Source: Candidatus Aminicenantia bacterium
GTDB taxonomy: Bacteria; Acidobacteriota; Aminicenantia; JdFR-78
Length of the DNA stretch: 64,000 bases
Reading direction: 5' to 3'
Assembly: GCA_046760445.1 (NCBI GenBank)
Contig: JBHIEE010000001.1
Span: 19,497 to 83,496, forward strand
A model generated the notes under the pieces. It ran no database searches, was not told the origin of the DNA, and worked only from the letters and a program-made list of their open reading frames with translations. The translations under genes and the position numbers were made by a program. The first letter of the stretch is position 1. The number at the start of each line of letters is the position of its first letter. Below, piece by piece: positions 5,861-55,773 of this stretch.

Positions 5861-5912
5861 GCCTTCGCCCTGAGGCTCAGGCCGAAGGGAAGCTTGAAGC
5901 AGGAGGCAAGAA
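5861..5912. repeat. GC-rich mini-palindrome (5861-5889) followed by a gaagc stutter (5889-5912)
   Basis: gccttcgccctgaggctcaggccgaaggg is a near-perfect palindrome. gaagcttgaagcaggaggcaagaa matches the reverse strand of 53166-53189 at 22/24. Confidence 0.7.
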
Positions 5913-5939
5913 TTTTCTTCCTGATTTTGATTTTTCAAT

Positions 5940-6548
5940 CTATTCCTTACTACTTTTAAATATTGATTTTTCTAAGATTTTTTCTCTTTTTTCTAAAAAC
6001 TCTATCTTATTCTCCAGTGTTCTCATCTTATTTTTCAATCCCTCTTTTTCTACTTTTAACTTGGTCAATTCAGCGACTAAATTGTGAACTAAATTATGAA
6101 GAAGTTTTACATATTCAGCTGTTTTAGCGAGTATTTCGTTTGTTTTAATTAGTCTTTCGTTTGTTTGAGCTAATCTTTCATTGGTATCCACTACTTCCTG
6201 ATGCACAGGTAAAACTAAAGTTTTAATTAGAGGAGATAAAGGAGTCATAATCCGTAGGAGAATTCCTTTTATTCTTTTCTTTAAGGTTATTGGTTGAGGT
6301 TTTTCCTGGGTTATTTCTAATTGTTCAGGTTGAGGATGAATTTTCTTTTCTTGGTATAAATGCTGGGAATAAAAATGGTGAATATCTTGAATATCGGGTA
6401 GAGGGTAAAGTTTCATTTCTTCGATTTCTTTTATTTCTTTATTGGTGACAATGCCCTCTTTTTTCTTTTGTTCAATGCTCTTTTTTATTTTCTCCATAAT
6501 CTCCTGAACATTGATTTCATTGTCTTTAATTTCTATAAAATCTACCAT
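5940..6548 (-). CDS. Coiled-coil protein of unknown function, part of the glycosyltransferase cluster
   Basis: Charged heptad-like sequence with internal repeats TNERLAQTNERLIKTNEILAKT. Good SD (ggagaaaaaga) before the ATG. Confidence 0.6.
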   Translation of the reverse strand: MVDFIEIKDNEINVQEIMEKIKKSIEQKKKEGIVTNKEIKEIEEMKLYPLPDIQDIHHFYSQHLYQEKKIHPQPEQLEITQEKPQPITLKKRIKGILLRIMTPLSPLIKTLVLPVHQEVVDTNERLAQTNERLIKTNEILAKTAEYVKLLHNLVHNLVAELTKLKVEKEGLKNKMRTLENKIEFLEKREKILEKSIFKSSKE

Positions 6549-6594
6549 TCTTTTTCTCCTTTGCTCACCATGAGCTCTTTTTTGTTGTTGAATA

Positions 6595-6623
6595 ATTTTA
6601 TAAATTTGAGATTAATTTGTCAA
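6595..6623 (-). promoter_or_regulatory. Sigma70-type promoter, TTGACA-17-TAAAAT
   Basis: The reverse strand reads ttgacaaattaatctcaaatttataaaat, about 45 nt upstream of the 6548 start. A second TTGACA lies at 6630-6635. Confidence 0.55.
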
Positions 6624-6631
6624 TTTTGTTG

Positions 6632-8581
6632 TCAATTTTGAATATAACCTAAGGCTTTTAGCTGTTTTTTTAATTCGTTTTCAATAGTCATTTTTTGGGG
6701 GCGGCCTTTTTTAGTTGAGACATAAACATTGTTTAATTTTTTAAGCAGTTTTTCAATTATTTCTTTTTTTTCAAAAGCAAGATTTTTTTGTTCCCCAGGG
6801 TCTTTGGTAAGATTATAAAGTTCAAGGTGAGGAATAGGAGAGGGAGAAAAAGAATAAAAAGACAAGTCTTGAGGAGGATAATTTTCATTAAAAATCAATT
6901 TGTATCGGCCGTCATTGATGGATATTTTTTTAGGGTTATGGAGATTTATAATATTTCGAGCGACATCGCTTATAAACACCCTATCTCCTTTTTCCTTACC
7001 GGATAATAAGTTGATTAAACTCTTTCCGTCAAACTCTTTCTCAGAATAATCTATTTTCATTTCCTCTAACACGGTAGGCATAATGTCTATGAGGCGGGTG
7101 ATATCTTTAATTTTTTTTCCTTTAAATTTAGATTGGGGAAACTTAATAATTAGTGGAACCCTAATTGACTCAGAATAAAGACTATGGCCATGAGTCCACC
7201 CTCCATGGTCGTAGAATTCTTCTCCGTGATCACTGGTAAAAATAATCATTGTCTGATGATAAAGTTTCAACCTTTTAAGTTCATTAATTAGGGGTTTAAT
7301 TAAACACTCATCAGTATATCTAATCTCTCCATCGTAAAGATCAATTATATTCTGTCTTTCCTCAGCTGAGAGAGGCTTAAATATACCAGCGTTTCCTCCT
7401 AACACTCCTTTTAAATTGATATACCTCCGTTTAGCCTTTTCGTTTAAAAACATCAAGTTAAAAGGATAGGGAGAGAAATAAGGGTCATGGGGCTGATAGG
7501 TATGTAGAAAAAGGAAGAATTTCTTATCTTTGTTTTTATTTAGCCAGGATGAAGCAGCTTTAAAAACGCGTTCAGCCGAGTCACGATGAAAAACTCCGCC
7601 CACATTTTCATTATAGTTATCAAAACCCTTAGAAAATCCATAAATACCGCTTATAAATCCACCCCCAGTATAAGCAGAGCAAAAATAGTTATTCTCTCTT
7701 AGAATATCAGCCAAAGTGATTATTGATGGAGACAATTTCTGATTTTTATAATAAACTTTATGATTAATTGTATTTAGAGAGGTCATCATAGAGAGATGTG
7801 AAGGAAGTGTCCAGGGAGATGAAGCAAAAGTCTTGGTAAAAAGAACACTATCTTTAGCCAATAAATCTATATTTGGGCTTGTTTTTCTTTGGTATCCATA
7901 ACAGCCTAAATGATCAGCTCTTAAAGTATCAATAGAGATAAGAATAAGGTTTTTGTTTTCTTTTCGTGGTTGGTAAATTACTGGGTTAAACCAGAAAGAT
8001 TGAACTTTTTTAGTTCCTTTTGTGAGTAAATAAAGATGAACTTTTTTCCCTTTTAAATAAGATAAGTCAATTTTTCTAAGAGGAAATATTTTGTTTTCTT
8101 TAGTAGTAATAGTTTTTTTAAATAAATAATTTGTTTTGTTTTTCTCAACAAGAATAATTTCAAATTCTACCTGACTGAAGTAAGTTTGTTTGGAGGAAGT
8201 TAGCACTCCATATCCAAATTCTAAGATTCCATTTTTGGGCAGCTTCACTTCAAATTTAAATAGACTTTTCGGTGGAGCAAATAAAGTGTTCAGTTCTGTC
8301 CCACCTATTTTTAATTTTCTTTTAATTAAAAATGGATTTCCAGTCTTGCTTGAAGCTTCAATTAATGGCCTGCTGGATAACACTTCCCTTAGGTAGGTGG
8401 TTTTTACATTTAAAGTTTTCAAAGGACTGTGAATAACATTTTCTTTGCTTAACTGGTCGATCAGTCGAAAGACTGTGAATTTTTCAGAAGAAATGCGGAA
8501 GCAACAGGTAAAATTTATAGTAAGCCAGCCTAAAACAACTGAAATGATCGTTAACCTTAGTTTAGTGTTTTTTAAACTCAT
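6632..8581 (-). CDS. Membrane-anchored sulfatase-like (alkaline-phosphatase superfamily) hydrolase/transferase
   Basis: ILISIDTLRADHLGCYGY, SDHGEEFYDHGGWTHGHSLY and an N-terminal TM helix. The nucleophile-position motif is TLPSH rather than C/S-x-P-x-R. Confidence 0.75.
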   Translation of the reverse strand: MSLKNTKLRLTIISVVLGWLTINFTCCFRISSEKFTVFRLIDQLSKENVIHSPLKTLNVKTTYLREVLSSRPLIEASSKTGNPFLIKRKLKIGGTELNTLFAPPKSLFKFEVKLPKNGILEFGYGVLTSSKQTYFSQVEFEIILVEKNKTNYLFKKTITTKENKIFPLRKIDLSYLKGKKVHLYLLTKGTKKVQSFWFNPVIYQPRKENKNLILISIDTLRADHLGCYGYQRKTSPNIDLLAKDSVLFTKTFASSPWTLPSHLSMMTSLNTINHKVYYKNQKLSPSIITLADILRENNYFCSAYTGGGFISGIYGFSKGFDNYNENVGGVFHRDSAERVFKAASSWLNKNKDKKFFLFLHTYQPHDPYFSPYPFNLMFLNEKAKRRYINLKGVLGGNAGIFKPLSAEERQNIIDLYDGEIRYTDECLIKPLINELKRLKLYHQTMIIFTSDHGEEFYDHGGWTHGHSLYSESIRVPLIIKFPQSKFKGKKIKDITRLIDIMPTVLEEMKIDYSEKEFDGKSLINLLSGKEKGDRVFISDVARNIINLHNPKKISINDGRYKLIFNENYPPQDLSFYSFSPSPIPHLELYNLTKDPGEQKNLAFEKKEIIEKLLKKLNNVYVSTKKGRPQKMTIENELKKQLKALGYIQN

Positions 8582-10487: not shown

Positions 10488-10738
10488 TTTTTTCTCCTAA
10501 AGAGGATTTAGATGTTGTCAAATTTAACCACAGAGGCCACCTGCTTTAATAAATCCCAAATACCAAGCCCCGTAGTCCCGAGTACTCGGGATGTACGGGG
10601 CAAGCACCAAATACCAAACAATATCCAATAACCTAATACCAAACGTAAACTTTGTCTGTGAAGTGTAAAGTGTAAGGTGTCATTTGTCACTTTACTCCTT
10701 ACTCTTTACGATTTACAGTTTTTGTAATTTGGAATTTT
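10488..10738. repeat. Composite intergenic repeat element made of stutter words and two hairpins
   Basis: GC-rich hairpin at 10567-10601 (gccccgta..cccgagtactcggg..tacggggc). 25-nt-arm imperfect hairpin at 10658-10709. aatacc-type stutter at 10610-10640. Shares ggtatttgggattt with 23152-23166. Confidence 0.7.
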
Positions 10739-12679: not shown

Positions 12680-12741
12680 TCTTTCGTTCCTCCTAACATC
12701 ATATTATAATACGAGAGATTTTTCAAAAAGTTTAGCTCTTT

Positions 12742-12776
12742 CAAGATAGTCAGCCTGTTTACCCCTGACTATCTTG
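12742..12776. promoter_or_regulatory. 12-bp-arm inverted repeat in a divergent promoter region
   Basis: caagatagtcag-N11-ctgactatcttg, followed by tttt on the plus strand. Confidence 0.5.
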
Positions 12777-12804
12777 TTTTACAATGAAATTTTACATTTT
12801 TACC

Positions 12805-12835
12805 CAATATCGGAATTTGAAAAATTCCGATATTG
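12805..12835. promoter_or_regulatory. Perfect 31-bp palindrome (14-bp arms, 3-nt centre), operator-like
   Basis: caatatcggaattt-gaa-aaattccgatattg, immediately upstream of candidate -35 boxes (TTGATT at 12843, TTGCTT at 12850) for the IMPase gene. Confidence 0.6.
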
Positions 12836-12888
12836 AAATCTATTGATTCTTGCTTCATATCAGAATAATTGATATTATTTAGGATACA

Positions 12889-38620: not shown

Positions 38621-39040
38621 TTTTTTCTCCTTTAAGTTTATAGAGTATTGTCAAGCTTAATCACAGAAGTCTCCTATTATATTAAATCACAAATATATCA
38701 ATGCTTCGCATGCTACAGGGCAAGCAAATTCTAATGACCCCTTCGGCCCGAGCTCAGAACGAGGGCAAATGACCAAAACGATTATCATGATTTCTCTATT
38801 ATAGAAGAGAAATTTTTCCTTAATTCTAAAAAGTTACTTTTTTTAGCAAACTGATAAGTTCGCTCTTCTAAGTCGTAATTACTTGTTTTTTTGTTTCGGT
38901 CATTGGGATTTTGGTCATTGGAACTTATTTGCTTCGCACCGAGGCTCAGTACGAGGTGTAATTTGTGATTTGGAATTTGGAATTTTTTATCATTTGTGTT
39001 CTCTGTGGTTTCTTTCATAATGTTTTACACCTCTTGCTTT
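38621..39040. repeat. 420-bp composite intergenic repeat region
   Basis: Contains mini-palindromes at 38738-38765 and 38931-38958, a 46-nt repeat at 38886-38931 (44/46 to 50449-50494), tttggaa stutters at 38966-38986, and ctctgtggtt at 39003-39012. Confidence 0.7.
38785..38880 (-). pseudogene. Truncated four-helix-bundle (23S rRNA IVS protein / Avd-like family) N-terminal fragment
   Basis: The translation NYDLEERTYQFAKKSNFLELRKNF... resembles the YDLEERT..FAK......K.LPK start of four-helix-bundle proteins, but stops after 31 codons. The upstream part of the track ORF (to 39018) is only translated stutter repeat. Confidence 0.45.
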
Positions 39041-40216: not shown

Positions 40217-40254
40217 GTCGCAGGTCTCATGTCAGCTTGTGGCTTGTGGCTTTA

Positions 40255-42267: not shown

Positions 42268-42425
42268 CTTATTCTCCTTGTCGTTTTAGCTGTTAGGCTT
42301 TAACTATTAGTTAGAAACTACCTGCCTTCGGCAGTCTAATTCGCTGAAGGCGGATAAGAAACTAAAAGCAAAAGATAATCCTTAGGATTCGGGATTGTTT
42401 CTTACCCGTAGACTTTTTCGATTCA
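42268..42425. repeat. Intergenic repeat region (ttagct stutter, two inverted gccttc hairpin units, ccttaggattcggg module)
   Basis: ttagctgttaggc (42286-42298) resembles the reverse strand of the 44.37-kb gap (ttagctcttagcc). ccttaggattcggg resembles 45567-45589. Confidence 0.5.
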
Positions 42426-44351: not shown

Positions 44352-44418
44352 CTTTTTGCCTCATAGAGCATATAGCCTTTAGCTCCTAGCTAATGGCTAA
44401 GAGCTAACGACTAATGGC
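44352..44418. repeat. Short intergenic stutter (tagct / taatggct words)
   Basis: agcctttagctcctagctaatggctaagagctaacgactaatggct. Confidence 0.4.
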
Positions 44419-45558: not shown

Positions 45559-45574
45559 CTTATTCCTTAGGACT

Positions 45575-45641
45575 CAAGGATTCGAGGGGTCGAGGATTCA
45601 AGTGAAATTTCCACTTGATCCCTTGGATCCTTGAATCCTTG
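45575..45641. repeat. Long imperfect hairpin (30-nt arms, 7-nt loop) built from ggattc/cgagg words, followed by CCCCCTTTATTTTTT on the plus strand
   Basis: 23 Watson-Crick pairs, 4 G-U-compatible pairs and 3 mismatches when read on the plus strand. It overlaps the last ~15 codons and the stop of the HIT gene. Confidence 0.7.
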
Positions 45642-46131
45642 CCCCCTTTATTTTTTCGAATAAGGGTAAAAGGCGACGATAAGTTGTTTTTAGGTCTTCA
45701 AGAACTACTTTTGTTTTCCCAAAAAGCGGCATAAAATTAGTGTCTCCTTCCCATCTCGGAACAATGTGGAGATGATAGTGATCTATTACTCCTGCTCCAG
45801 CGCTTCGACCTAAATTCATTCCAATATTGAAACCGTTAGGTCGGTAAGCGTCCTTTAGAACTTTTAAGCAAAGATTGATAATCTCCGGTATTTCTTGTAA
45901 AACATCACTCGGCGAATCTTCAGGAGAAGAAAGATGGGAATAAGGAGCAATCATTAAGTGGCCACAATTATAAGGAAAGGCATTCATAATTACAAAATTA
46001 TATTTTCCTCGGGAGAGAATTAATGCCTGTTCGTCGTTTTTTGCTTCTAAAGCCTGACAGAAAATACATTCATTCATTAGATGAACTTGCTTGACATATT
46101 TTTCCCGCCAGGGAGCCCAGATATACTCCAT
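45598..46131 (-). CDS. HIT-family nucleotide hydrolase/transferase
   Basis: Histidine triad HYHLHIVPRW. The C-terminal tail KGARIQGSKGSSGNFT is encoded by the hairpin repeat. Confidence 0.8.
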   Translation of the reverse strand: MEYIWAPWREKYVKQVHLMNECIFCQALEAKNDEQALILSRGKYNFVIMNAFPYNCGHLMIAPYSHLSSPEDSPSDVLQEIPEIINLCLKVLKDAYRPNGFNIGMNLGRSAGAGVIDHYHLHIVPRWEGDTNFMPLFGKTKVVLEDLKTTYRRLLPLFEKIKGARIQGSKGSSGNFT

Positions 46132-46132
46132 T

Positions 46133-46408
46133 TTATTGGTTAATATATTCCTTCAGTAATTTGCTCGGTTTGAAATAGAGAACTTTTTTGGTGGGGACTT
46201 GAACTTTTTCTCCTGTTCGAGGATTTCTTCCTATTCGTGGTTTTCTTTCTCTGAATCGAAAGCTACCAAATCCTCTCAATTCAATTTCTTCTTCATTTAG
46301 AATCGCTTCTTTTATTGATTTGAAAAAGAGATTGACTGCTACTTCTGCTTGTTGCTTTGAAATATTTAGTTCTTCTGCAAGTATATTGACTAAGTCTGCC
46401 TTAACCAT
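46133..46408 (-). CDS. HU/IHF-family DNA-bending protein, IHF-beta-like
   Basis: IELRGFGSFRFRERKPRIGRNPRTGEKV. Directly downstream of rpsA, as ihfB is in proteobacteria. Confidence 0.8.
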   Translation of the reverse strand: MVKADLVNILAEELNISKQQAEVAVNLFFKSIKEAILNEEEIELRGFGSFRFRERKPRIGRNPRTGEKVQVPTKKVLYFKPSKLLKEYINQ

Positions 46409-48161
46409 TTTTGTTCCTCCTTTTTTTACTTATTTTATTTCCTGTTTCTTGGGGAGTTATTTTTTTGAACTGATCCTTTAATATATCTCCTAAAGTAGCT
46501 GTTTTTCTTATCGTTTGTTGATATTTTTGGTATTCTCTCTTTTGAATTTCTGTCTGAGCTTGTTTAAAACTCAACCCGATTTTCTTTTCCTTAGGGTTCA
46601 TTTTGATAATCATTGCTGGCTTTATTTCACCAAGAGTAAAATATTCAGAAGGCTTGTCTATCCTTTTTTCACTCAATTCCGAGAGAAAAACAAGTCCTTC
46701 CACCCCTCGACAGATTTCCGCAAATACACCAAAATCAGTTAATCTGGTTATTTTTACATCAATGACATCTCCAATTTTGTATTTTTTGAAGACTTCTTCC
46801 CACATATCACCTTCCAACTGCTTTATTCCCAGAGACAGTTTTTGTTTTTCAGGGTCCATTTTTAAAATCACAGCTTCAATCTCTTGTCCAGAACGAAGAA
46901 CTTCAGAAGGGTGACTTATTTTTTCCCAAGAAATATCAGAAATGTGGATTAACCCTTCAACTCCTTCTTGAACTTCGAGAAATGCTCCAAAATCAGTTAG
47001 ATTAGTTACCTTACCACGGACAATAGAACCCTCTTTGTGTTTTTCAGCAAAGATTTTCCAGGGATGAGGTTCTGTCTGTTTTAAACCGAGAGAGATTCTT
47101 CGAGCAGAGCGATTGACATCAAGAATTACTACCTCCACCTTATCACCACAGGATAATATTTTTTTAGGATGAATTGTTTTTCGGGACCAAGTGAGATCAG
47201 AAACATGAATTAGGCCCTCTACTCCTTCTTCCAGTTCAATAAAGGCACCAAAATCAGTTAGGCTGACTACAGTGCCTCTTACTCTTTGTCCAACCTTATA
47301 TTTTTGATCTACACTCTCCCAAGGGGTAGGTGTTTTTTGTTTAAATCCAAGAGATATTTTTTCTTCTTGTTCGTTGTAACTAAGAACGATTACTTCAACT
47401 TCTTGTCCTACTTTAAACATTTCCGAAGGATGATTCATTCTTCCCCAAGACATATCATTAATATGAAGTAGGCCATCCACACCCCCCAAGTCAATGAATG
47501 CTCCAAAATTAGTTAAAGAAGATACTTTACCTTTAATTAATTTCCCTGCGCTGAGATTATCAAAAACTCTTCTTTTGGCTTTTTCTCGTTCATCTTTGAG
47601 AAAAAGCCTTCTCGAAAGAATGGCACTTTCGTTTTTTCGATCAAGTTTTAAAACTTTAAACTTATACTCATTACCAATGATATTATCTGAACCTTTACCT
47701 TTTTTAATGTCTACTTGGGACTCAGGGAGAAAAGCATTTATCCCTAAATTGACAATATATCCGTTTCTTACTTTGTGAATTACTCTTCCACGTACCCAAG
47801 AATTATGGTTATATGCTTTTTTTAATTCATTCCAAGCTCTTATTTCATCTGCTTTTCTTTTAGAAAGAAGAAGATAACCATCTTTATAGTTTGTTTTTTC
47901 AATAATAACATTAATTTTATCTCCTTCTTCAACTGATGCTTTTCCCTGCCAATCGAGAAAGTCTTCTATCGGGACGATCCCTTCTGCTTTATATCCAATA
48001 TCAACGAGCACATCATTTGAGCTGATTTTAATTACTTTTCCTTGAACTATTTTTCCCTCAGAAATATCTTTTATATTAAATTGATATTTTTCTAAAAGAT
48101 GGCGATAATCCTCGGCAGAAATATCTTCTTGAGCAGGTGTTTTTTTATTCAATTCATCCAT
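46401..48161 (-). CDS. rpsA: 30S ribosomal protein S1
   Basis: Six S1 domains (repeated GxVxxxxxFGAFxxL...GLxHxS pattern). Confidence 0.95.
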   Translation of the reverse strand: MDELNKKTPAQEDISAEDYRHLLEKYQFNIKDISEGKIVQGKVIKISSNDVLVDIGYKAEGIVPIEDFLDWQGKASVEEGDKINVIIEKTNYKDGYLLLSKRKADEIRAWNELKKAYNHNSWVRGRVIHKVRNGYIVNLGINAFLPESQVDIKKGKGSDNIIGNEYKFKVLKLDRKNESAILSRRLFLKDEREKAKRRVFDNLSAGKLIKGKVSSLTNFGAFIDLGGVDGLLHINDMSWGRMNHPSEMFKVGQEVEVIVLSYNEQEEKISLGFKQKTPTPWESVDQKYKVGQRVRGTVVSLTDFGAFIELEEGVEGLIHVSDLTWSRKTIHPKKILSCGDKVEVVILDVNRSARRISLGLKQTEPHPWKIFAEKHKEGSIVRGKVTNLTDFGAFLEVQEGVEGLIHISDISWEKISHPSEVLRSGQEIEAVILKMDPEKQKLSLGIKQLEGDMWEEVFKKYKIGDVIDVKITRLTDFGVFAEICRGVEGLVFLSELSEKRIDKPSEYFTLGEIKPAMIIKMNPKEKKIGLSFKQAQTEIQKREYQKYQQTIRKTATLGDILKDQFKKITPQETGNKISKKRRNKNG

Positions 48162-49036
48162 TGGATTAAATTCTCCTCAATTTGTTGGTTGGATTTTGAT
48201 TTTTTAATTTCCTTTATTCTTTCTACAACTTCCATAATTAGTTCATGAGGAGTGGAAGCGCCAGCTGACACTCCAATCTCTTCAGCGAAGGCAATCATTT
48301 TAGGAGTGAGATTATCTGTTTTTTCAATGAAATAGGTATTTTCCTGAATCCTCTTTGCCAGATTATATAATTTATTTGTATTTGAACTTTTTCTATCTCC
48401 AATGATTAACATTATATCCACTTGGGCAGCCAGTTGAGCAGTTGCTTTTTGCCTTATTTGAGTCGAGTCACAGATTGTATTAAATACTTTTAGTTCTCTG
48501 GTTTTTTCAATAAGTTTAGAAACAATTTTTTGATAGAGAGTGATATCTTGAGTTGATTGAGCGATAACCCCTCTTTTGTTTTTTTTGGGCAATAAATCAA
48601 CTTCTTCTTCGCTTTTAATTACTACTTCTTTTCCCTGAGAAAAACCAATTAAACCTTTAATTTCTGGATGTGGTTTATTTCCAACAATAATAATTTCGTA
48701 GTCCTCGTCAGCCAATTTCTTGACCAGTTTTTGACTTTTTTTGACAAAAGGACAGGTAGCATCAATTACTTCTATTCCCTTGTCAACCAATTGTTGAAAA
48801 ATGTGAGGAGAAATCCCGTGGGATCTAATGATTATTGTTCCTCCCTTTATTTGGCTAATATCATCAATTGATTCTATCCCTTCTTTTCTCAAATTTTCTA
48901 CCACTTGTTGATTATGAATTAAATCACCAAAGGTAAAAACTTTTCCTTTTTTCTCCCTCCGAATTTGTCGGGCAATGTTTATTGCTCTTTTTACCCCGAA
49001 GCAAAAACCCGATTTGGTGACCACTCTAATCTTCAT
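48149..49036 (-). CDS. ispH: 4-hydroxy-3-methylbut-2-enyl diphosphate reductase
   Basis: GFCFGVKRAI, DATCPFVKK, NTICDST, SSNTNKL. Confidence 0.95.
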   Translation of the reverse strand: MKIRVVTKSGFCFGVKRAINIARQIRREKKGKVFTFGDLIHNQQVVENLRKEGIESIDDISQIKGGTIIIRSHGISPHIFQQLVDKGIEVIDATCPFVKKSQKLVKKLADEDYEIIIVGNKPHPEIKGLIGFSQGKEVVIKSEEEVDLLPKKNKRGVIAQSTQDITLYQKIVSKLIEKTRELKVFNTICDSTQIRQKATAQLAAQVDIMLIIGDRKSSNTNKLYNLAKRIQENTYFIEKTDNLTPKMIAFAEEIGVSAGASTPHELIMEVVERIKEIKKSKSNQQIEENLIQWMN

Positions 49037-49100
49037 GGAACTAACAATGGTAATTATACTATCTTAATTATATAAGTTTTGTCAATACCAAAAGAAGATG

Positions 49101-50207
49101 TTAAGACATCTGATTTAGAACTTCTTTTATTTTTTCTAAGAAAAAAAGGTTCTCCTTAGGAGTACCAACAGTAACTCGAAATGCCTCTGGAACTTCAAAG
49201 GCTTCTAATGGTCGAATAATTACTCCTTTTTTAATTAACTCCGAATATGTCTTTTTAACTGGATAAGGAGTTTTAAACATAATAAAATTAGCCACTGAAG
49301 GAATTACCTCTAATCCAAGTTTTGTTAATTCTTTCTGTAAAAATTCTCTTTGTTTAAAGTTTAACTCCCGACTTTTCCTGACGTGCTGTTTATCTTCTAG
49401 GGCGGATAAAGCTCCCTGTTGAGAAGAACGAGGAACATTAAAAGGAGTTTTAGTTCTCCTTAAGACATTAATAATTTCCTTTTGAGATATTCCATAACCT
49501 ACTCGAAGACCAGCTAATCCATAAATTTTAGAAAATGTTCTTAGGACAATTACTTTTTTCCCCTGTCTGATATATTTTGTTCCGTCTGGATAATCGGGTC
49601 GAGTTATATATTCTTTATATGCCTCATCAAAAATAACAATTATTTCTTCTGGTACCTTAGCTAAAAAATTATCTACTTCTTCTTCAGTAACCATGGTTCC
49701 AGTTGGATTGTTTGGGTTAGCAATAAAAATTAGTTTAACTTTAGGATTGAGATGTTCAATGAAACCTTCTAAATCATAGGTATAATTATTTTTCAAAGGG
49801 ACTTTGATAATAGCTTCTTTTCCATTTACTTCACAGATTGCTAAGCGATACATAAGGAAGGTTTTTTCTGAGATTATTGCTTTATTTTGGCGATCAAGAA
49901 ATGCATGGGAAATCATTTTTATTAAATCAGTTGACCCACCACCTAAGATTATTTGATCCATTGGAAAGTCTAATTTTCCAGATAAAGCCCGCTTTAAATA
50001 AAAGCCATCATCGTACGGATATCGATGAGAGGAGTTTAATTCTTTTTTTATTGCTTCAATCGCTTTGGGTGAAGGACCCAAAGGATTTTCATTTGAAGCT
50101 AATTTAACTATTTTTTTTAGCCCTAATTCTCGCTGAATTTCCTCTATTGGTTTCCCCGGAACATAGGGTTGGATTTGAAGAATGTGAGGTGGAATTAAAT
50201 TTTTCAT
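49101..50207 (-). CDS. hisC: Histidinol-phosphate aminotransferase
   Basis: LASNENPLGPSP, NPNNPTG, RTFSKIYGLAGLRVGY. Confidence 0.9.
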   Translation of the reverse strand: MKNLIPPHILQIQPYVPGKPIEEIQRELGLKKIVKLASNENPLGPSPKAIEAIKKELNSSHRYPYDDGFYLKRALSGKLDFPMDQIILGGGSTDLIKMISHAFLDRQNKAIISEKTFLMYRLAICEVNGKEAIIKVPLKNNYTYDLEGFIEHLNPKVKLIFIANPNNPTGTMVTEEEVDNFLAKVPEEIIVIFDEAYKEYITRPDYPDGTKYIRQGKKVIVLRTFSKIYGLAGLRVGYGISQKEIINVLRRTKTPFNVPRSSQQGALSALEDKQHVRKSRELNFKQREFLQKELTKLGLEVIPSVANFIMFKTPYPVKKTYSELIKKGVIIRPLEAFEVPEAFRVTVGTPKENLFFLEKIKEVLNQMS

Positions 50208-50289
50208 TATTAGACCTCTCTCTTTAATATTGAATTTTTTAAGTTTAAAAACTTAATACTAGCAAGGTTTTTAAAGGCTATTTTTTGAC

Positions 50290-50510
50290 TTCACCTCTCT
50301 ATAAAAATTAAAAATCAAATATCAAAAATCAAAATGACAAATTAAAACTCAAAACTAATACTAATACTAATAGTTCTGCGGTGCTGCCGTTCTGCAGAAC
50401 TAATGTAAAAGACATTTTTGCATTTTGATTTATTCCAAGATTATTTGCTTTTTTTGTTTGAGTCATTGGGATTTTGGTCATTGGAACTTATTTGTAATTT
50501 GGGGTTTTTA
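50290..50510. repeat. Composite intergenic repeat region with a TIR-bounded ~106-nt unit (50326-50431) and a 46-nt repeat (50449-50494)
   Basis: aaatcaaaatg at 50326-50336 is inverted at 50421-50431. Central 9-bp-stem hairpin at 50371-50402. 50322-50341 is identical to 53032-53051. Confidence 0.7.
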
Positions 50511-50594
50511 TATAAACCTTTAACATCTTTAACTCATCTTCTTTCTGTTATGATTATTTGAGAACCCTTATATTCTGTTTTATTAATTAAATTA

Positions 50595-51284
50595 TTATAT
50601 GTCAATCTTCTCTGGAAAAGAAGCATTTTCTTCCTCAATAATGTCTTTTAATTCCTCTATAGATGGTAAATCTTCCAGACTGTTTAGACCAAAATAAGTT
50701 AGGAATTCTTTAGTAGTTCGGTAAATAAGAGGTCGTCCTGAAGTCTTCTTTCGTCCCACAATTTTGATAAATTTTAGTTTAAGTAAAGTTCGAAGAGTAT
50801 ATGAAGAATCAACTCCCCGAAGGGCAGAAATTTCAGGTAGGGTAACTGGTTGATGATAAGCAATCGCTGCAAGAGTCTCCAGGGCAGCAGGAGAAAGTTT
50901 GGATTGTTTTTTAATGTTGAGCAGTCTTTTAATCCAAGAATCGTATTTTGGCTTAGTGGTGAATAAATAGCCACCGCCTGCTTTAATAATGTGTATTCCA
51001 TGATGGCTGTTTTTATAAGATTTAGCTAACTCTTCCAGGGCTTGAGTAATTTTTTCCTTGGGCACATCTTTAAGGATTTCAGCTATCTTATCTACAGTTA
51101 AAGGTTCGTTAGATATAAAGATTAAAGCTTCAATTATTGAGGCCTCAAGACCTTGAGCTCCTAAGACTTTAAGACCTTTTTTATTAAGTCTGGGAGTCTT
51201 GGTGACCTCGGGTCTTGATGTCTTAGGCTTCCTTCTCAATTCTCTCCCCTTAATTCTTTCCTCAGATAATGTCTTCTCAGCCAA
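50595..51284 (-). CDS. scpB: Segregation and condensation protein B
   Basis: IIEALIFISNEPLTVDKI and AALETLAAIAYHQPVTLPEISALRG. The start is uncertain (TTG, basic 50-aa leader overlapping scpA). Confidence 0.85.
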   Translation of the reverse strand: MAEKTLSEERIKGRELRRKPKTSRPEVTKTPRLNKKGLKVLGAQGLEASIIEALIFISNEPLTVDKIAEILKDVPKEKITQALEELAKSYKNSHHGIHIIKAGGGYLFTTKPKYDSWIKRLLNIKKQSKLSPAALETLAAIAYHQPVTLPEISALRGVDSSYTLRTLLKLKFIKIVGRKKTSGRPLIYRTTKEFLTYFGLNSLEDLPSIEELKDIIEEENASFPEKIDI

Positions 51285-51976
51285 ACCTTAATAGTCTGAA
51301 AAAGATTTTCTTGAATAGCTACTACATTTCGGCTTTTAATTAATTCTAATAAGCCGAAAAAAGAAATTATTGCTTCTTGTAAAGAAGTCTGAGAATTAAA
51401 GTAGTCTAAAAAATCTAAGTTTTTGTTTTTTCTAAGAAAAAACAAAATTTCTTCCATTTTTTCTTCAACTGAAAATTTCCGACCCTCAATCGTCTGTATT
51501 TCTTCTCTTTCTTTTCTTTTTAATATCTTGTAAAATGCCTCAGCTAAATCAAAGACTGAAGCTTCCTTCAAGATGATTTCTTCTTTCAAATTCAAGTTAG
51601 AATGAAATCGTTTCCATTGAACTAATTGTTCAGATTCCTTTTGAGAAAGAATAAAAGAAATATTCTTAATTTTTTGATACTCGAGTAATTGATCAACTAA
51701 TGACTGACGCGGGTCTTCTTCAAACTCAATTTCTTTTTCACGAGGAAGAAGCATTTGAGATTTAATATAAATCAATGTTGCCGCAACTAAAAGAAAATCT
51801 CCCTCCCTATCTAAGTTGATTTTATCCTTTCTATTCAAATAATCGAGGTATTCATGGGTTATTTTGGCCATAGGAATGTCGTAGATGTCAATTTTGTTTT
51901 TTCTGATTAAAAAGAGGAGAAGTTCTAAGGGGCCTTCAAATATTTCAAGTTTAACTTGGTAACCGGCTGTCTTCAT
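51236..51976 (-). CDS. scpA: Segregation and condensation protein A
   Basis: FEGPLELLLFLIRKNKIDIYDIPMAKIT. Confidence 0.85.
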   Translation of the reverse strand: MKTAGYQVKLEIFEGPLELLLFLIRKNKIDIYDIPMAKITHEYLDYLNRKDKINLDREGDFLLVAATLIYIKSQMLLPREKEIEFEEDPRQSLVDQLLEYQKIKNISFILSQKESEQLVQWKRFHSNLNLKEEIILKEASVFDLAEAFYKILKRKEREEIQTIEGRKFSVEEKMEEILFFLRKNKNLDFLDYFNSQTSLQEAIISFFGLLELIKSRNVVAIQENLFQTIKVWLRRHYLRKELRGEN

Positions 51977-51979
51977 CAG

Positions 51980-52984
51980 CTAAAATCCTATTGCCTGTCG
52001 CACTTCTTCCATGGTTTGCTGAGCTTTTTTCCGAGCCTTCTTATTCCCTTCAGCTAATATTTCCCAGACAGTTTGAGGTTTCTTTAAAAACTCTTTTTTC
52101 CGCTCTCGAAAGGGAGCAAATCTTTCTGTTAATTCATCGATGATTACCTGCTTGCATTCTAAACAACCAATCGAAGCTGTTCGACAGGCTTGGGCTAACT
52201 CTACTTTTTTTTTCGATGGAGTAAAGGCTTTGTGTAGAGTAAAGACTGGGCAGTCCTCTGGTTCACCGGGATCAGTTCTTCTTTTCCTTTGAGTATCAGT
52301 CATCATTGGTTTAATTTTTTGTTCAATAATCCGGGGAGAATCTCCAAGGTAAATAGCATTGTTATATGATTTACTCATTTTCCGACCATCAGTGCCAGCC
52401 AATTTTGGTACTTCAGTTAATAGAACTTGTGGTTCAGGAAAAACTTCTCCGAAAAATCGATTAAATCGGCGGACAATTTCCCTAGCCAGTTCAATGTGAT
52501 ACACTTGATCTTCTCCCACTGGAACATAATGAGCTTTGTAAATGATAATATCAGCTGTTTGAAGAAGCGGATAGCCTAAGAATCCATATGTATTAAGATC
52601 TTTATCAGGCAATTGTTGCTGGAGTTCTTTAAAAGTAGGAACCCTTTCCAGCCAGGGAAGGGGAGTTATCATTGACAGTAAAAGATGGAGCTCAGCATGT
52701 TCTTTAATTTCAGACTGGAGAAAAATGACACTTTTTTCTGGATCAAGACCTACACTTAGCCAGTCGACAGCCAGTTCAAATATATAGTCTTTTATAATTC
52801 TTGAGTTTTGATATTCTGAGCTTAAAGCATGCCAAGAAACAATTGAAAAGTAACACTGATATTCGTCTTGCAATTCAATCCAGTTTCTTAAGGCACCAGC
52901 CATATGCCCTAAATGAAGAGCACCCGTTGGCCGCATCCCACTTAATACTGTTTTCTTTTTGCTTTTCTTAGTGTGGATATTCAT
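51980..52984 (-). CDS. trpS: Tryptophan-tRNA ligase, variant with a C-terminal four-Cys cluster
   Basis: HIGH-type GALHLGH, KMSKS, and C245-x21-C267-x6-C274-x2-C277. Confidence 0.95.
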   Translation of the reverse strand: MNIHTKKSKKKTVLSGMRPTGALHLGHMAGALRNWIELQDEYQCYFSIVSWHALSSEYQNSRIIKDYIFELAVDWLSVGLDPEKSVIFLQSEIKEHAELHLLLSMITPLPWLERVPTFKELQQQLPDKDLNTYGFLGYPLLQTADIIIYKAHYVPVGEDQVYHIELAREIVRRFNRFFGEVFPEPQVLLTEVPKLAGTDGRKMSKSYNNAIYLGDSPRIIEQKIKPMMTDTQRKRRTDPGEPEDCPVFTLHKAFTPSKKKVELAQACRTASIGCLECKQVIIDELTERFAPFRERKKEFLKKPQTVWEILAEGNKKARKKAQQTMEEVRQAIGF

Positions 52985-53019
52985 CTCATCAATCTTAATA
53001 GTTTAACTATTTGAAAAGG

Positions 53020-53189
53020 CTTTAATTAAATTCAAAAATCAAAATGACAAACCAAAATGTAAAGCAATATTCATTAAATTGTAAATTTTTGACTTTTAAT
53101 CTGTCATTTCTATCTTTGATTTTTAAATTTTGATTTAACATTTGGTAGCTTAATTGTTATTTTCCTTCTTGCTTCCTGCTTCATGCTTC
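53020..53189. repeat. Composite intergenic repeat: TIR-bounded ~100-nt unit (about 53036-53137) plus a gaagc heptad stutter (53166-53189)
   Basis: tcaaaaatcaaaatgacaaa (53032-53051) is identical to 50322-50341. Inverted copy tgtcatttctatctttgattttt at 53102-53124. Confidence 0.65.
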
Positions 53190-53869
53190 TATAAAAATAT
53201 TATTGTATAAATCACTATCAATATTGGTCTTATTATCAGGGATAGAAGACCAAGATAGATAAGGGCTAAAATTATAATAAACCCAAAGGGACGAATTCGG
53301 TCATATTTCTCAGCTGCCTCATCGGATAACAGCCCCATAAGTACTCCACTTCCATCCAGAGGAGGGACAGGAATGAGATTGAATACAGCTAAATAGGTGT
53401 TAATTAAAGTTCCATAAAAAAGAATTAAGGACAAACCCTCTAAAGGATGAAATCCAGGACTAAAGACTAAATGTCCTGTTAGAAGGCTCTTTAAAAAATA
53501 GCCTACCCTTGGGGTTATTCCTTTAAAAAAAACAATAGCCATAAGACAAAAGAAAGCTACCATTATATTGGACAATGGCCCAGCCGCTGAGATCCAGAGA
53601 TTGTCTCTTTTGGGATTTCTTAAATTATATGGATTAACCATAACTGGTTTCGCCCAACCAAAAGCTGGTGCACCCAAAAGAATAAGAAAGAGAGGAAGAA
53701 TAACTGTTCCAAAAGGATCAATATGAGCCAAAGGATTAAGGGTTACTCTTCCCTGAAGATAAGCTGTTGGATCACCTAATTTATGGGCTGTCCATCCATG
53801 GGAAGCTTCATGTATAGTTATTGCAAAAAGAAGTACAAAGATTTGAATAATGCCTAAAGCAATACTCAT
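53189..53869 (-). CDS. Site-2 protease family (M50) membrane metalloprotease
   Basis: HEASHG zinc motif in the first TM helix, LNLIPVPPLDG, polytopic. Confidence 0.75.
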   Translation of the reverse strand: MSIALGIIQIFVLLFAITIHEASHGWTAHKLGDPTAYLQGRVTLNPLAHIDPFGTVILPLFLILLGAPAFGWAKPVMVNPYNLRNPKRDNLWISAAGPLSNIMVAFFCLMAIVFFKGITPRVGYFLKSLLTGHLVFSPGFHPLEGLSLILFYGTLINTYLAVFNLIPVPPLDGSGVLMGLLSDEAAEKYDRIRPFGFIIILALIYLGLLSLIIRPILIVIYTIIFL

Positions 53870-54017
53870 TTCCTTTCCTTTATAACATAATAAACATTCC
53901 TGAGCAAGATTAAGGCTTAATTACTTGCTATTTTTTAGAAAAAATATTAATAGAACAGGTGGAGGGAAGAAAAGATGAATTCATTAGAACAATTAAAAAA
54001 TCAAGAGGAGGTACATT

Positions 54018-54923
54018 ATGATTTCAAAAATCTTAAAAGTAACAATTTTAATCATCATTTTCCTTTTATTTAACATTAGTTACTTATCTTCGAGTCAAAA
54101 ACTTAAGGTTTACATCTCAGTGGATATGGAAGGAATTACTGGAGTAGTGAATCGAGACCAAGTATCATCAGAGGGTAAAGATTACAATTTAGCCCGAAAA
54201 TGGATGATGGAGGAAACAAACGCTGCTATTCAGGGTGCTCTTGATGCAGGAGCAACTAAAATTATGGTTAATGATTCTCACGGGAATATGAGAAATATAA
54301 TAATTAGCGAGCTCAATCCAACGGCCTATCTCATCACTGGTTCTCCAAAGTCTCTCAGTATGATGCAGGGAATTGATAACACTTTTGATGTCGTAATATT
54401 TATTGGGTATCATGCTAAGGCTGGAACGAAAGATGGAGTCTTAGACCATACTTATTCCAGTGCTTCAGTCTATTCCATAAAAATTAATGGAATCGAAATG
54501 CCAGAAGTTGGAATAAATGCTGCAGTAGCAGGTTATTTTGATGTGCCAGTAGTCTTAATTGCTGGAGACTCAGCCGTTTGTCAGCAAGCAAAAAATCTTT
54601 TAGGAAAAGAAATTGAAACAGTGGCGGTCAAGGAAGGTATTGGAAGATATGCTGCAAAATGTTTACCATTTGAAAAAGCTCTTCAATTAATAAGAGAAAA
54701 AACAAAAATAGCTCTTGAAAAAAGAAAAGAAATAAAGCCTTTCAATCTTGATCCTCCTTACAAATTTGAATTAGAGTTTCTTTATAGCTATCAAACTGAT
54801 TATGCTGAGCTTATTCCTGGAGTAAAAAGAATAGGTGGGAGAACAGTTGTTTTCACCACGAATGACCTGATTGAAGGCTTCAAGCTTATGCGGGCGCTTA
54901 TTGCTTTAGCTCGAACTCTATAA
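54018..54923 (+). CDS. M55 family D-aminopeptidase (DppA-type), with signal/anchor
   Basis: KVYISVDMEGITGV, VNDSHGNMRN, GYHAKAGT. Confidence 0.85.
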   Translation: MISKILKVTILIIIFLLFNISYLSSSQKLKVYISVDMEGITGVVNRDQVSSEGKDYNLARKWMMEETNAAIQGALDAGATKIMVNDSHGNMRNIIISELNPTAYLITGSPKSLSMMQGIDNTFDVVIFIGYHAKAGTKDGVLDHTYSSASVYSIKINGIEMPEVGINAAVAGYFDVPVVLIAGDSAVCQQAKNLLGKEIETVAVKEGIGRYAAKCLPFEKALQLIREKTKIALEKRKEIKPFNLDPPYKFELEFLYSYQTDYAELIPGVKRIGGRTVVFTTNDLIEGFKLMRALIALARTL

Positions 54924-55320
54924 ACATGAAATCTGATATCCACAAAATTCACCTGTTCGCAATTTGAAATTTTTGCTCGACTTTATTTTCTTGAGCTTGG
55001 AATCACAAATAGAGTCTTTGAAATTAAGACCGAGATTAATTCAAAAAAATTTTAAAAAATTTCAAGTTTTTTGCTTTTCAAAAGACTAAATTATATGGAG
55101 AGAAAAAGTTATGGATTTAAGAATTAAGGAGGCTCTCAAATTCATAGATGACCCTTCTGACATGACAGATAAGTCAACATTTGGGTTTTTGTTTTGATCT
55201 ATTACTTTATTTTTCGAGTGAAATTTAAAAATTTTTTACAGATGTAATTTTTTTTTACACTCAGATTTCATCTTTTAATTTAAATTATGTCCAGATAATA
55301 GAGAAATTCCTCTCTTGAAT

Positions 55321-55336
55321 TGGCACAAATATTGCA
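55321..55336 (+). promoter_or_regulatory. Sigma54 (-24/-12) promoter, TGGCAC-N5-TTGCA
   Basis: tggcacaaatattgca matches the TGGCAC-N5-TTGC core perfectly. The predicted start near 55347 precedes SD ggggagggag and the ATG at 55362. Confidence 0.7.
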
Positions 55337-55361
55337 TAAGAAAAAGGGGAGGGAGAAACGA

Positions 55362-55688
55362 ATGGAATATTTAGAGTATTCAGCTTTCCGGAAACAAATT
55401 GAGGCTGCTATGAAAAGAGCAAAGTGTAAAAAAGTGCTGTATTTTTATGATAATTTAGGTTATAAGAGGTTGTTAGGGGTTTTTAATAAAAAAACAGCTT
55501 ATCAAATCAGGAGATATCTTCGAACAAAAAAATTAGTTGATCGGATGACCGAATTTGATATAAAAACAACTGAGCCACCTAAAAGTTTCCTTGAAGCAAT
55601 TGATTTAATAACAGAGTATTCATCAAGCAGAAAATCTGGCTCACATAGTAATTTTCATTTTGAGAAGCAGCTCATAAATTATCGATAA
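55362..55688 (+). CDS. Orphan basic protein, 108 aa, unknown function
   Basis: ATG with a strong SD, downstream of the sigma54 promoter. MEYLEYSAFRKQIEAAMKRAKCKK... is Lys/Arg-rich with no recognisable motif. Confidence 0.55.
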   Translation: MEYLEYSAFRKQIEAAMKRAKCKKVLYFYDNLGYKRLLGVFNKKTAYQIRRYLRTKKLVDRMTEFDIKTTEPPKSFLEAIDLITEYSSSRKSGSHSNFHFEKQLINYR

Positions 55689-55740
55689 ATCAGGCTTTTC
55701 AATAAACTCATAATAACCACTCTTGACTTGCTGCTTCAGA

Positions 55741-55773
55741 ATTTGGGATTTTGCCGCACGAAGTGAGGTATAT
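55741..55773 (+). repeat. Second copy of the 33-nt element (31/33 to 23157-23189)
   Basis: atttgggattttgccgcacgaagtgaggtatat. Lies between the orphan gene stop (55688) and the stop of the convergent GTPase gene (55775). Confidence 0.7.

Follow-up and report, generated by a model that had tools for sequence, protein, structure and literature searches.

Degenerate heptamer arrays and inserted 27-nt mini-hairpins in the intergenic gaps of a Candidatus Aminicenantia genome

We investigated the intergenic DNA of a 64,000-nt stretch of a Candidatus Aminicenantia bacterium genome (GenBank assembly GCA_046760445.1, contig JBHIEE010000001.1, positions 19,497 to 83,496; hereafter the window), where about a third of the intergenic gaps hold a mosaic of imperfect tandem 7-nt words (i.e., stutter arrays), long hairpins, and GC-rich mini-hairpins. 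The explanation that we favor, with a probability of roughly 60%, is that these gaps carry two layers of selfish or neutral DNA rather than elements dedicated to regulation, with stutter arrays that would have grown by replication slippage and very small hairpins, mobilized in trans, that would have colonized them. One 27-nt family of such hairpins (CTTCGYCCYGAGGCTCAGCCCGARGGG) is nearly identical from this 33% GC Aminicenantes genome to 70% GC Chloroflexota, and in other genomes it was found in stutter arrays, at hairpin tips, and nested in itself.

The 31 intergenic gaps of the window were pooled (4372 nt). The self-match of this DNA at a lag of 7 nt was 35.5%, compared to 29.7% after shuffling (z = 8.4), with further signals at lags of 8 (z = 3.9) and 14 nt (z = 3.5), whereas coding DNA reached 27.8% at lag 7 and displayed only its period-3 pattern. 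Similarly, 3.07% of intergenic 21-nt segments had at least 10 of 14 lag-7 matches, compared to 0.07% of coding segments, which agrees with an earlier note on this DNA (made from the sequence alone) that saw nothing comparable inside the coding sequences; at other lags, 0.03-1.3% of the intergenic segments passed, making 7 nt the dominant period. Tested gap by gap against dinucleotide shuffles, the lag-7 z-score (z7) exceeded 2 in ten gaps (at 5850, 10488, 23137, 38621, 40217, 42268, 44352, 45559, 50208, and 52985). The earlier note had listed 12 affected gaps, and 11 of these stand, ten by their z7 and the one at 55741-55773 as a copy of a module at 23157-23189, while its surrounding gap (55689-55774) was not significant in the lag-7 test (z = 1.4). 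The gap at 35002-35026 has to be dropped from the list, as it holds just a 4-bp stem in surroundings (34973-35079) with a non-significant z7 of 0.4. The five word series quoted in that note were all found where it had placed them. The arrays are short (3-10 units) and degenerate (unit-to-unit lag-7 identity of about 60-67%), with 8-nt words in two places.

Pieces of the mosaic recur between loci, as had been claimed, and did so against a shuffled control: different gaps had 65 non-low-complexity 12-mers in common, about 8 times the control values, compared to 7.8 +/- 4.4 in dinucleotide shuffles and 6.3 +/- 3.5 in size-matched, non-overlapping coding controls, with the excess stemming mostly from about five module pairs. 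The long imperfect hairpins were borne out as well, since the five main folds (computed here and below with RNA parameters, unless called DNA folds) had z-scores from -3.1 to -5.8. Many of the words are of the CCAAnnn or nnnTTGG type (AAATACC, AATGACC, GGTCATT, GGGATTT, GGAATTT), and CCAA-type arrays precede TTGG-type arrays in all four large gaps (10488-10738, 38621-39040, 50208-50594, and 52985-53188); the same order was found in two unrelated metagenome contigs, the clearest ones. Because the polarity of an inverted repeat reads alike on both strands, random inversion would not yield this order. A C/A-rich array placed before a G/T-rich array makes each large gap a long imperfect hairpin, which can pair in several registers.

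The second layer consists of GC-rich mini-hairpins of 25-34 nt that lie in phase within the arrays. The search pattern for the 27-nt family (CTTCGNNCYGAGGCTCAGNNCGA) matched two sites in the window without mismatch, where 0.00 were expected by chance. Copy 1 (CTTCGCCCTGAGGCTCAGGCCGAAGGG; 5863-5889, + strand) is the best window member, with a model score of 33.3 bits (E = 3e-9) and a DNA fold of -9.5 kcal/mol. Copy 2 (CTTCGCACCGAGGCTCAGTACGAGGTG; 38931-38957, + strand, read exactly as 38932-38958) scored 15.3 bits (E = 1.4e-3) and is located between the heptamer units TTATTTG and TAATTTG, which are joined directly when the 27 nt at 38932-38958 are taken out; it is missing from a paralogous module, where the same units meet at 50494/50495. 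A degenerate copy 3 (38741-38765), one base shorter, scored a marginal 8.1 bits (E = 0.25) and similarly on the other strand, and it retains the helix formed by positions 6-9 and 24-27 via a G-C swap. In addition, a 34-nt GC-rich two-stem palindrome (CCCCGTAGTCCCGAGTACTCGGGATGTACGGGGC; 10568-10601), with a single copy in the window, sits in phase in a heptamer array and is flanked by AAG on both sides; its DNA fold is -15.3 kcal/mol (z = -6.0), a value that none of 200 shuffles equaled, and taking it out with one AAG rebuilds the 7-nt unit AAGCACC. Since removal of the mini-hairpins restores heptamer units, the arrays are older and the mini-hairpins later arrivals.

Outside the window, the 27-mer pattern was detected in at least 118 loci, compared to about 9 expected by chance by our own estimate, in a scan of one genome per GTDB species; counts from it, and the taxonomic range that it gives, are lower bounds. 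Canonical flanks (extended consensus aGGCTTCGYCCYGAGGCTCAGCCCGARGGg) accompany 96 of the 120 pattern matches listed, and we take most of the remaining 24 as chance matches in high-GC coding sequence. Among the matches listed, the 96 canonical ones come from about 47 assemblies, of which about 42 belong to Chloroflexota (Anaerolineae, Caldilineae, Dehalococcoidia, and Roseiflexaceae), and the others to two Margulisiibacteriota (44-46% GC), Elusimicrobia UBA5214 (37% GC), a Leptolyngbyaceae cyanobacterium, and an Ignavibacteriales metagenome-assembled genome. The loci in Margulisiibacteriota and Elusimicrobia have 37-46% GC, which speaks against their being Chloroflexota contaminants. Copies in low-GC loci have mixed coding and intergenic placement, and 35 distinct cross-phylum variants served to build the sequence-only covariance model used for the scores above. 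Another short motif (CCTTCGACAGGCTCAGG), which resembles the 27-mer in part, was noticed in many Chloroflexota loci (e.g., seven of those inspected) and directly adjoins the 27-mer within a larger repeat in assembly CAKZKA01; the 27-mer is contained in larger repeats in Chloroflexota, and no copy of these without it was found among the loci examined.

The arrays, too, extend beyond the lineage. A 23-nt piece (GTCATTGGGATTTTGGTCATTGG), the core of a module at 38886-38930, was found in six metagenome contigs from JGI (34-56% GC), of which five are independent, where about 0.01 matches would be expected by chance on our own rough estimate, and in these contigs it is again set in a CCAA...TTGG stutter. 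Judging from these sequences, the heptamer words TTGGTCA and TTGGGAT are not lineage-specific, and with a 27-nt family in at least six phyla including this one, the suggestion in the earlier note of a lineage-specific class of elements does not hold.

Evidence that the 27-mer moves as a unit came from an ortholog pair. In Elusimicrobia UBA5214 (locus L051), it lies in frame in an mrpD-like gene and encodes PLGLSLGAK, and exactly these nine residues are missing from the closest mrpD-like ortholog (locus L137; 72% identity overall, 89% locally), the DNA of the two differing by exactly 27 nt (CGT[CCCCTCGGGCTGAGCCTCGGGGCGAAG]CCTTT vs CGC/CCTTT). Locus L137 (JGI Ga0315312_1000139, ~1405-1480) has a GC-rich in-frame insert of its own, about 19 codons long, in another loop of the gene; this insert contains the palindrome TAGTCGGCCCTTAAGGGCCGGCTA and is missing in the L051 protein. 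From such sequences, it seems that in-frame entry of mini-palindromes into genes has happened repeatedly in low-GC genomes. Self-insertion was observed in six loci, all in other genomes and none in the window, as a nested AABB arrangement at the center (GAGG/CTCAG) of the 27-mer. In many loci, the same 7- or 8-nt array stands on both flanks of the 27-mer (e.g., in six loci), and removal of the 27 nt restored its period (e.g., in four of these six). The ortholog pair and the arrays are compatible with a core of 25 nt between two copies of GG (the window copy has TG...TG flanks), and they fit an insertion of 27 nt without duplication equally well.

We also examined the 27-mer for conserved structure. 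Of the 75 copies that remained after deduplication by context, 40 have T-A at positions 9 and 24, 31 have C-G, and 4 are discordant. Within the 4-bp helix (6-9/24-27), both sides have changed at three of four pairs, two of which rest on one sequence each, and the window copies supply two of the changes (A-T and G-C). None of 500 shuffles reached the covariation score of the helix, its percentage of paired cells, or its count of both-side changes. We regard this helix, read from the alignment, as suggestive only.

Comparison with relatives places the arrays as additions to an older gene order. The order LytB-S1-HU-HIT-ACAD-PpiD-OPT (ACAD, acyl-CoA dehydrogenase) is kept in relatives, and the two nearest lineages (31-33% GC) have a 4-nt overlap of HIT with ACAD and an ACAD/PpiD gap of 15 nt with just a ribosome-binding site. 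In the window, the first junction is taken up by an 8-mer hairpin of 86 nt and the second by a heptamer hairpin of 59 nt; given how tight the sister-lineage junctions are, these stutter hairpins are insertions. The window HIT protein has a new 16-residue C-terminal tail (KGARIQGSKGSSGNFT; 45598-45650), which by its coordinates lies inside one arm of the 8-mer hairpin, in place of the KREKILNKK of relatives; four HIT relatives have different ends that are 7-9 residues shorter. Heptamer hairpins also occur in one of the two sister lineages, where they lie in different gaps (lag-7 z = 4.8), while no lag-7 peak was found in two more distant Aminicenantes (40-42% GC), and the 27-mer was absent from the syntenic loci of the closest Aminicenantes relatives. 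Given the lag-7 peak in the sister lineage and none in the 40-42% GC genomes, the stutter is, on this comparison of sequences, a trait of this low-GC Aminicenantes sublineage, in which individual arrays are young relative to the gene order. Side effects in the window include structured RNA between cistrons, wider gene spacing, and the rewritten HIT C-terminus. A different repeat of about 200 nt was noticed in Candidatus Aminicenantes CP070825.1 (42% GC, without heptamer stutter), with three copies in 22 kb, once inverted (1517-1822, 4995-5362, and 17081-17390; core ...GGCATCGCTCCCGTTCAGA...CGGTGTCCGGCTCCGCCGGATTCCCTCAAAG...).

Heptanucleotide STRR (short tandemly repeated repetitive) sequences were reportedly described by Mazel et al. 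in 1990 from heterocystous/filamentous cyanobacteria, and TTGGTCA is what we take to be the STRR2 unit, one of three original cyanobacterial STRR units. In filamentous cyanobacteria, tandem 7-bp STRR repeats form hairpins inside operons (hupS-hupL), and these hairpins have been proposed to stabilize transcripts or couple translation (PMC2670836). The window is like STRR in its tandem 7-bp intergenic units, in several word families per genome, and in hairpins between operon genes (HIT-ACAD-PpiD here). It differs in the host, which is not a cyanobacterium but a member of Aminicenantes (Acidobacteriota-related, with a sigma-54 activator present), and in its short and degenerate arrays (3-10 units, ~65% unit identity) that also use 8-nt units and whose words recur in unrelated contigs of 34-56% GC. 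Heptamer repeats are also in excess in the intergenic regions of Xanthomonas and Nostoc, for which slippage has been proposed (PMC4692102). These share with the window the intergenic 7-nt excess and some inverted pairs able to form stem-loops, and their length varies between close relatives (PMC4692102); unlike the AT-rich, degenerate window arrays with inserted mini-hairpins, however, they are G-rich (GGGAATC, GGGGAYT), near-perfect, and quadruplex-capable.

The mini-hairpins also have known counterparts. Elhai et al. in 2008 are said to have found 21-27-nt SDRs (small dispersed repeats) in Nostoc punctiforme and relatives, embedded in heptamer arrays and nested in themselves. No match to the 27-mer was found in the 72,556 plasmid records of PLSDB, which presumably include Nostoc and Anabaena plasmids, and the 27-nt family is therefore probably not one of SDR1-8. 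Papers that cite Elhai et al. 2008 report SDRs as short mobile elements of cyanobacterial genomes, one of which, SDR5, has its insertions precisely within HIP1 (PMC5861425 and PMC4390886), and as found only in Nostocaceae (PMC5861425). SDRs reportedly resemble the 27-mer in size (21-27 nt vs 27 nt), in lying within heptamer arrays, in nesting in themselves, and in being present or absent between matching sequences; they are also reported to have a small conserved secondary structure with compensatory changes, to which the helix of the 27-mer offers a suggestive parallel. The 27-mer differs from SDRs in its hosts (Chloroflexota, Margulisiibacteriota, Elusimicrobia, Ignavibacteriales, Leptolyngbyaceae, and Aminicenantes) and in occurring as an in-frame 9-codon genic insert. 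The earlier note could match the mosaic to nothing known, but its kind is known from cyanobacterial STRR arrays and SDRs (PMC2670836, PMC5861425, PMC4390886). The closest mechanistic analogue is REP/RAYT: elements of the REP/BIME/REPIN-RAYT type (enterobacteria, pseudomonads) are likewise short imperfect palindromes outside genes, often separating co-transcribed ones; they do not move on their own, and their movement is believed to proceed via single-strand hairpins. By contrast, the 27-mer (consensus GGCTTCGYCCYGAGGCTCAGCCCGARGGG) has no GTAG/GTGG head and no REPIN pairing, and no RAYT was found among the window open reading frames (ORFs) scanned.

A literature search for the sequence of the 27-mer gave no match, and Rfam gave none in 18 loci that carry it and only noise at one site; as a cross-phylum element it appears to be undescribed. 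Viral contigs contained only three matches to the 27-mer and none to the core pattern of the 34-nt palindrome (GTAGTCCCGAGNNCTCGGGA), which makes phages no obvious vector.

We hypothesize that the first layer, i.e., degenerate tandem arrays of 7-nt and sometimes 8-nt units, grew by replication slippage, was inverted by template switching, and entered tight operon junctions in the low-GC Aminicenantes sublineage, and that the GC-rich mini-hairpins of 25-34 nt were then inserted in phase. The 27-nt family would be a non-autonomous, very small mobile element that inserts as a unit beside GG (TG here), with a preference for stutter arrays, hairpin tips, and the center of its own copies. Its near-identity across phyla might mean that the mover reads both its sequence and the 4-bp helix (6-9 with 24-27), and our best guess for such a mover would be a single-strand, hairpin-specific transposase of the HUH/Y1 type, like those of REP/RAYT and IS200/IS605. 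The view in the earlier note of a class of structured or mobile elements is in keeping with these results, as the hairpins are significant and part of the mosaic behaves as mobile DNA.

Several points weigh against this two-layer explanation. The window holds just three copies of the 27-mer in 64 kb, one of them marginal (E = 0.25), and its filled/empty pair is paralogous: in the alignment of 38886-38992 with 50449-50512 (96%-identical modules), the indel is 41 nt, i.e., 27 nt plus two 7-nt units, and its boundary is not unique. No mobilizing gene (transposase, integrase, or reverse transcriptase) was found among the approximately 40 window ORFs scanned, each of which belongs to a housekeeping family or has no Pfam match, with about a dozen ORFs outside the scan. 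All non-Aminicenantes hosts are metagenome-assembled genomes, some of which may be mis-binned. As for structure, positions 9 and 24 could be linked because the copies descend from two founder subfamilies and not because the two positions pair, shuffled sequences fold as well as single sequences of the 27-mer, and the full palindrome has a C.A mismatch in 45% of the variants and no covariation, although most of its columns were fixed by the search pattern. Finally, the strand preference of the stutter hairpins is inconsistent, as for three of six the better fold is that of the strand that is not transcribed, which counts against an RNA function and leaves the arrays without a demonstrated role.

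Other explanations account for part of these observations. Strict REP elements (REP/BIME/REPIN), spread by a RAYT (TnpA-REP) encoded elsewhere in the genome with the arrays as unrelated background, would fit mini-hairpins that are imperfect palindromes of 25-34 nt, lie outside genes in multiple copies, can fold into hairpins as single strands, and lack terminal inverted repeats and long target duplications, and the 34-nt palindrome even has an internal GTAG, the conserved REP tetranucleotide. We nevertheless consider this unlikely, as the 27-mer lacks the GTAG/GTGG head, its copies are single rather than in inverted pairs, the scanned ORFs include no RAYT, and a given REP sequence is normally confined to one species and the RAYT of that species, whereas the 27-mer is nearly identical between genomes of 33% (Aminicenantes) and 70% GC (Chloroflexota). 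We know of no REP family with self-nesting, in-phase insertion in heptamer arrays, or cross-phylum conservation. It is also rather doubtful that the structures are selected cis-regulatory RNA (mRNA stabilizers, attenuators, terminators, or translational couplers) whose similarity stems from a common function. Nearly all of them separate genes of the same direction, the four divergent promoter gaps contain none, two hairpins (44360-44420 and 53024-53146) have their best fold on the sense strand, and the roles proposed for STRR hairpins (PMC2670836) would suit them; on the other hand, three of the six fold better antisense as noted above, orthologous sister-lineage junctions work with 0-15 nt, so that the elements are dispensable additions, and one hairpin rewrites a protein C-terminus. 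The stems have no T tract, and a consensus scan for intrinsic terminators in 38000-57000 flagged a single weak site in the mosaic, the stem at 42322-42334, with a poor T tail. Rfam gave no match in the window at the gathering threshold and four at E <= 1, every one of them outside the gaps.

Simple-sequence slippage combined with chance GC-rich stems, with nothing mobile and with convergent matches in other genomes, is in line with the over-representation of heptamers among simple repeats in many bacteria, for which slippage was proposed (PMC4692102, citing Mrazek et al. 2007), and with units as degenerate (~60-67% lag-7 identity) as old slippage products would be. We find it improbable, because convergence cannot give 27 nt alike at 23 or more positions in six phyla (at least 118 loci vs about 9 by chance) and because it leaves unexplained the exact 27-nt in-frame insert relative to the ortholog, the nested AABB copies, and the 23-nt stutter word common to contigs of 34-56% GC. 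A CRISPR remnant, a classical MITE family, or an assembly artefact would share with the mosaic little more than short repeated sequences in non-coding DNA, and is hardly credible, in accordance with the earlier note on the first two. Repeat and tandem-repeat searches gave no regularly spaced 24-40-nt repeats with unique spacers, and no CRISPR family reached the Rfam threshold. MITE-like units of 50-500 bp were not found either; the modules are 33-46 nt without terminal inverted repeats, and at most a 2-nt GG/TG repeat flanks a 25-nt core. Two further ideas, a templated addition like that of telomeres and Rho loading at the CA-rich arrays, were considered and dropped. Regarding assembly, 11.3 kb of the window (38983-50330), covering five affected gaps and parts of two more, is 100% identical to an independently assembled Logan contig (SRR29324583), and thus the sequence features are not artefacts of one assembly.

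What is new here is the phylum of the host, the 27-nt family itself, the fact that its members are nearly identical in six phyla over a wide range of GC contents, and its in-frame insertion into a gene, while the two-layer architecture is of a known kind, previously from one cyanobacterial family. Near-identity at 33-70% GC, an exact filled/empty ortholog pair, and the presence of the architecture in an unrelated, uncultured phylum make the search for the mover tractable, as gene families can be compared with the presence or absence of the 27-mer over tens of thousands of genomes. Through such elements, operon junctions become longer, polycistronic transcripts gain strong hairpins, protein ends are rewritten, and genes receive nine extra codons, all of which gene callers and comparisons of metagenome-assembled genomes should take into account. 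As a long shot, the 27-mer might be among the smallest mobile DNA elements, spreading horizontally in at least six phyla and using its positions 6-7, in the manner of the IS200/IS605 guides, to recognize a GG/TG target by base pairing, with insertion and excision duplicating a few bases and so seeding or extending the heptamer arrays; if true, the intergenic 7-nt repeat excess and the mobility of cyanobacterial SDRs would share one cause, and the enzyme would be findable by phylogenetic profiling.

The individual gaps vary in the words and folds that they hold. Next to copy 1 of the 27-mer, a purine-rich period-7 stutter (5887-5939; GGGAAGC TTGAAGC AGGAGGC AAGAA) is followed by a T-rich partner (TTTTCTTCCTGATTTTGATTTTTCAAT), with a lag-7 match of 0.63 in the array and a gap z7 of 4.3. 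The array of CCAAATA-type heptamers at 10546-10643 (AAATCCC AAATACC AAG/CACC AAATACC AAACAAT ATCCAAT AACCTAA TACCAAA; gap z7 = 8.1), broken by the 34-nt palindrome at 10568-10601, has 11-21-nt words in common, inverted, with 23148-23168. In the same gap, inverted heptamer arrays form a hairpin (10652-10738; GTGAAGT GTAAAGT GTAAGGT / ACTTTAC TCCTTAC TCTTTAC; period-7 match 0.66) that continues into a TTTGG-type tail (TTTGTAATTTGGAATTTT), the fold of 10645-10722 being -23.3 kcal/mol (z = -4.4) on the + strand and -15.6 kcal/mol (z = -2.5) on the - strand. A TTTGG-type stutter at 23141-23189 (+ strand; GGTATTT GTTTGGT ATTTGGG ATTTTG; gap z7 = 2.2) is joined to a small GC-rich stem (GCCGAACGAAGTGAGGC), and the 33-nt module at 23157-23189, composed of TTTGGGATTTTG and GCCGCACGAAGTGAGG, has its second copy at 55741-55773 (+ strand) in a convergent gene junction. 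The corresponding pattern (GCCGNACGAAGTGAGG) had two exact matches in the window and one 3-mismatch match inside a gene, with 0.21 expected by chance at <=3 mismatches.

The 420-nt gap at 38621-39040 has a C/A-rich arm (38685-38780; CAAAT/AATGACC-type words; gap z7 = 4.6) that includes a small GC-rich stem at 38701-38726 as well as copy 3 of the 27-mer, and its G/T-rich part comprises a stutter module of the TTGGTCA/TTGGGAT type (TTTTTTTGTTTCGGTCATTGGGATTTTGGTCATTGGAACTTATTTG; 38886-38930, + strand) and an AATTTGG-type stutter (38958-39006, + strand; TAATTTG TGATTTG GAATTTG GAATTTT), which Tandem Repeats Finder reported with period 7 and 3.7 copies (lag-7 match 0.65). The module is 96% identical to 50449-50494 (a 46-nt repeat family), which belongs to a second TTGGTCA-type module (50449-50510, + strand) with an empty insertion site, TTATTTG/TAATTTG, at 50494/50495. 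Separately from the stutter words, the 80 nt upstream of two unrelated genes, for a YknW-like membrane protein and an M29 peptidase (10488-10565 and 38621-38700; minus strand), are homologous, with 53 of 80 columns invariant and a common core of CTGTGrTTAArYTTGACAA followed by AGGAGAAAAAA-ATG. From its sequence, this upstream region looks like a duplicated promoter or leader module that travels with the stutter mosaic.

Several shorter gaps are filled by a single structure. The 38-nt gap at 40217-40254 consists entirely of a period-7 stutter (GTCGCAG GTCTCAT GTCAGCT TGTGGCT TGTGGCT; z7 = 4.1), which folds only on the non-coding + strand via G-U pairs (-15.8 vs -1.4 kcal/mol). The mosaic at 42268-42425 is weaker (z7 = 2.9; fold z of just -1.6), with TTAGC-type words at 42285-42312, a CTGCC-TTCG-GGCAG tetraloop hairpin at 42322-42334, and more short stems. 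A period-7 stutter hairpin (44360-44418; AGCCTTT AGCTCCT AGCTAAT GGCTAAG AGCTAAC GACTAAT; z7 = 6.4) fills the ACAD/PpiD junction and folds on the transcribed strand with -26.8 kcal/mol (44360-44420; z = -4.3). The period-8 hairpin at 45565-45650 (GGACTCAA GGATTCGA GGGGTCGA GGATTCAA / TTGATCCC TTGGATCC TTGAATCC TTGCCCCC) spans the HIT stop codon and the HIT/ACAD junction, and its fold (45562-45652) is -42.5 kcal/mol (z = -5.5); since it reaches into the last codons of the HIT gene (45598-46131), the earlier assignment of 45559-45658 to an intergenic gap needs correction.

In the gap at 50208-50594, an A-rich AAAATCA-type stutter is followed by an ACTAAT hexamer run and a GC-richer period-8 palindrome (TTCTGCGGTGCTGCCGTTCTGCAGAA) at 50298-50402 (Tandem Repeats Finder, period 7, 7.6 copies), with a fold of -29.3 kcal/mol (50296-50436; z = -5.8). 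This region has 11-19-nt words in common with 53032-53050, where inverted AAATCAA / TTGATTT arrays form a long AT-rich hairpin (53026-53143; gap z7 = 5.3) that is also related to 50303-50347 as an inverted repeat and folds on the - strand with -24 kcal/mol (53024-53146; z = -3.1). Next to it, the stutter quoted earlier at 53166-53189 is present, but the period-7 array (53158-53193; CTTCTTG CTTCCTG CTTCATG CTTC) is not confined to the gap: it abuts and overlaps the stop codon of the ORF at 53189-53869.

The window as a whole has 33% GC and tightly packed housekeeping genes, including glycosyltransferases, an Ffh-RpsP-KH-RimM-TrmD-RplS cluster, peptidases, an OPT transporter, ACAD, ScpA/B, and TrpS, as well as a gene for a 1668-residue kinase/TPR/GAF/sigma-54 activator. 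For its PpiD-like protein (42426-44351), homologs number in the hundreds and carry the source names Candidatus Aminicenantes or Aminicenantales, but even the nearest are only 64-65% identical. The divergent gap at 12680-12888 contains two ordinary strong hairpins (AAGATAGTCAGCCTGTTTACCCCTGACTATCTT and ATATCGGAATTTGAAAAATTCCGATAT; fold z of -5 to -6), which are distinct from the stutter hairpins since they have no period-7 signal despite their strong folds. Lastly, the 457 nt at 29979-30435 are without an ORF of at least 100 residues. Their lag-7 signal is weak (z = 2.1), they contain a stutter of a 9-nt word (AGTAAAGCC AGTAAAACC), and a small or decayed gene may be hidden there.

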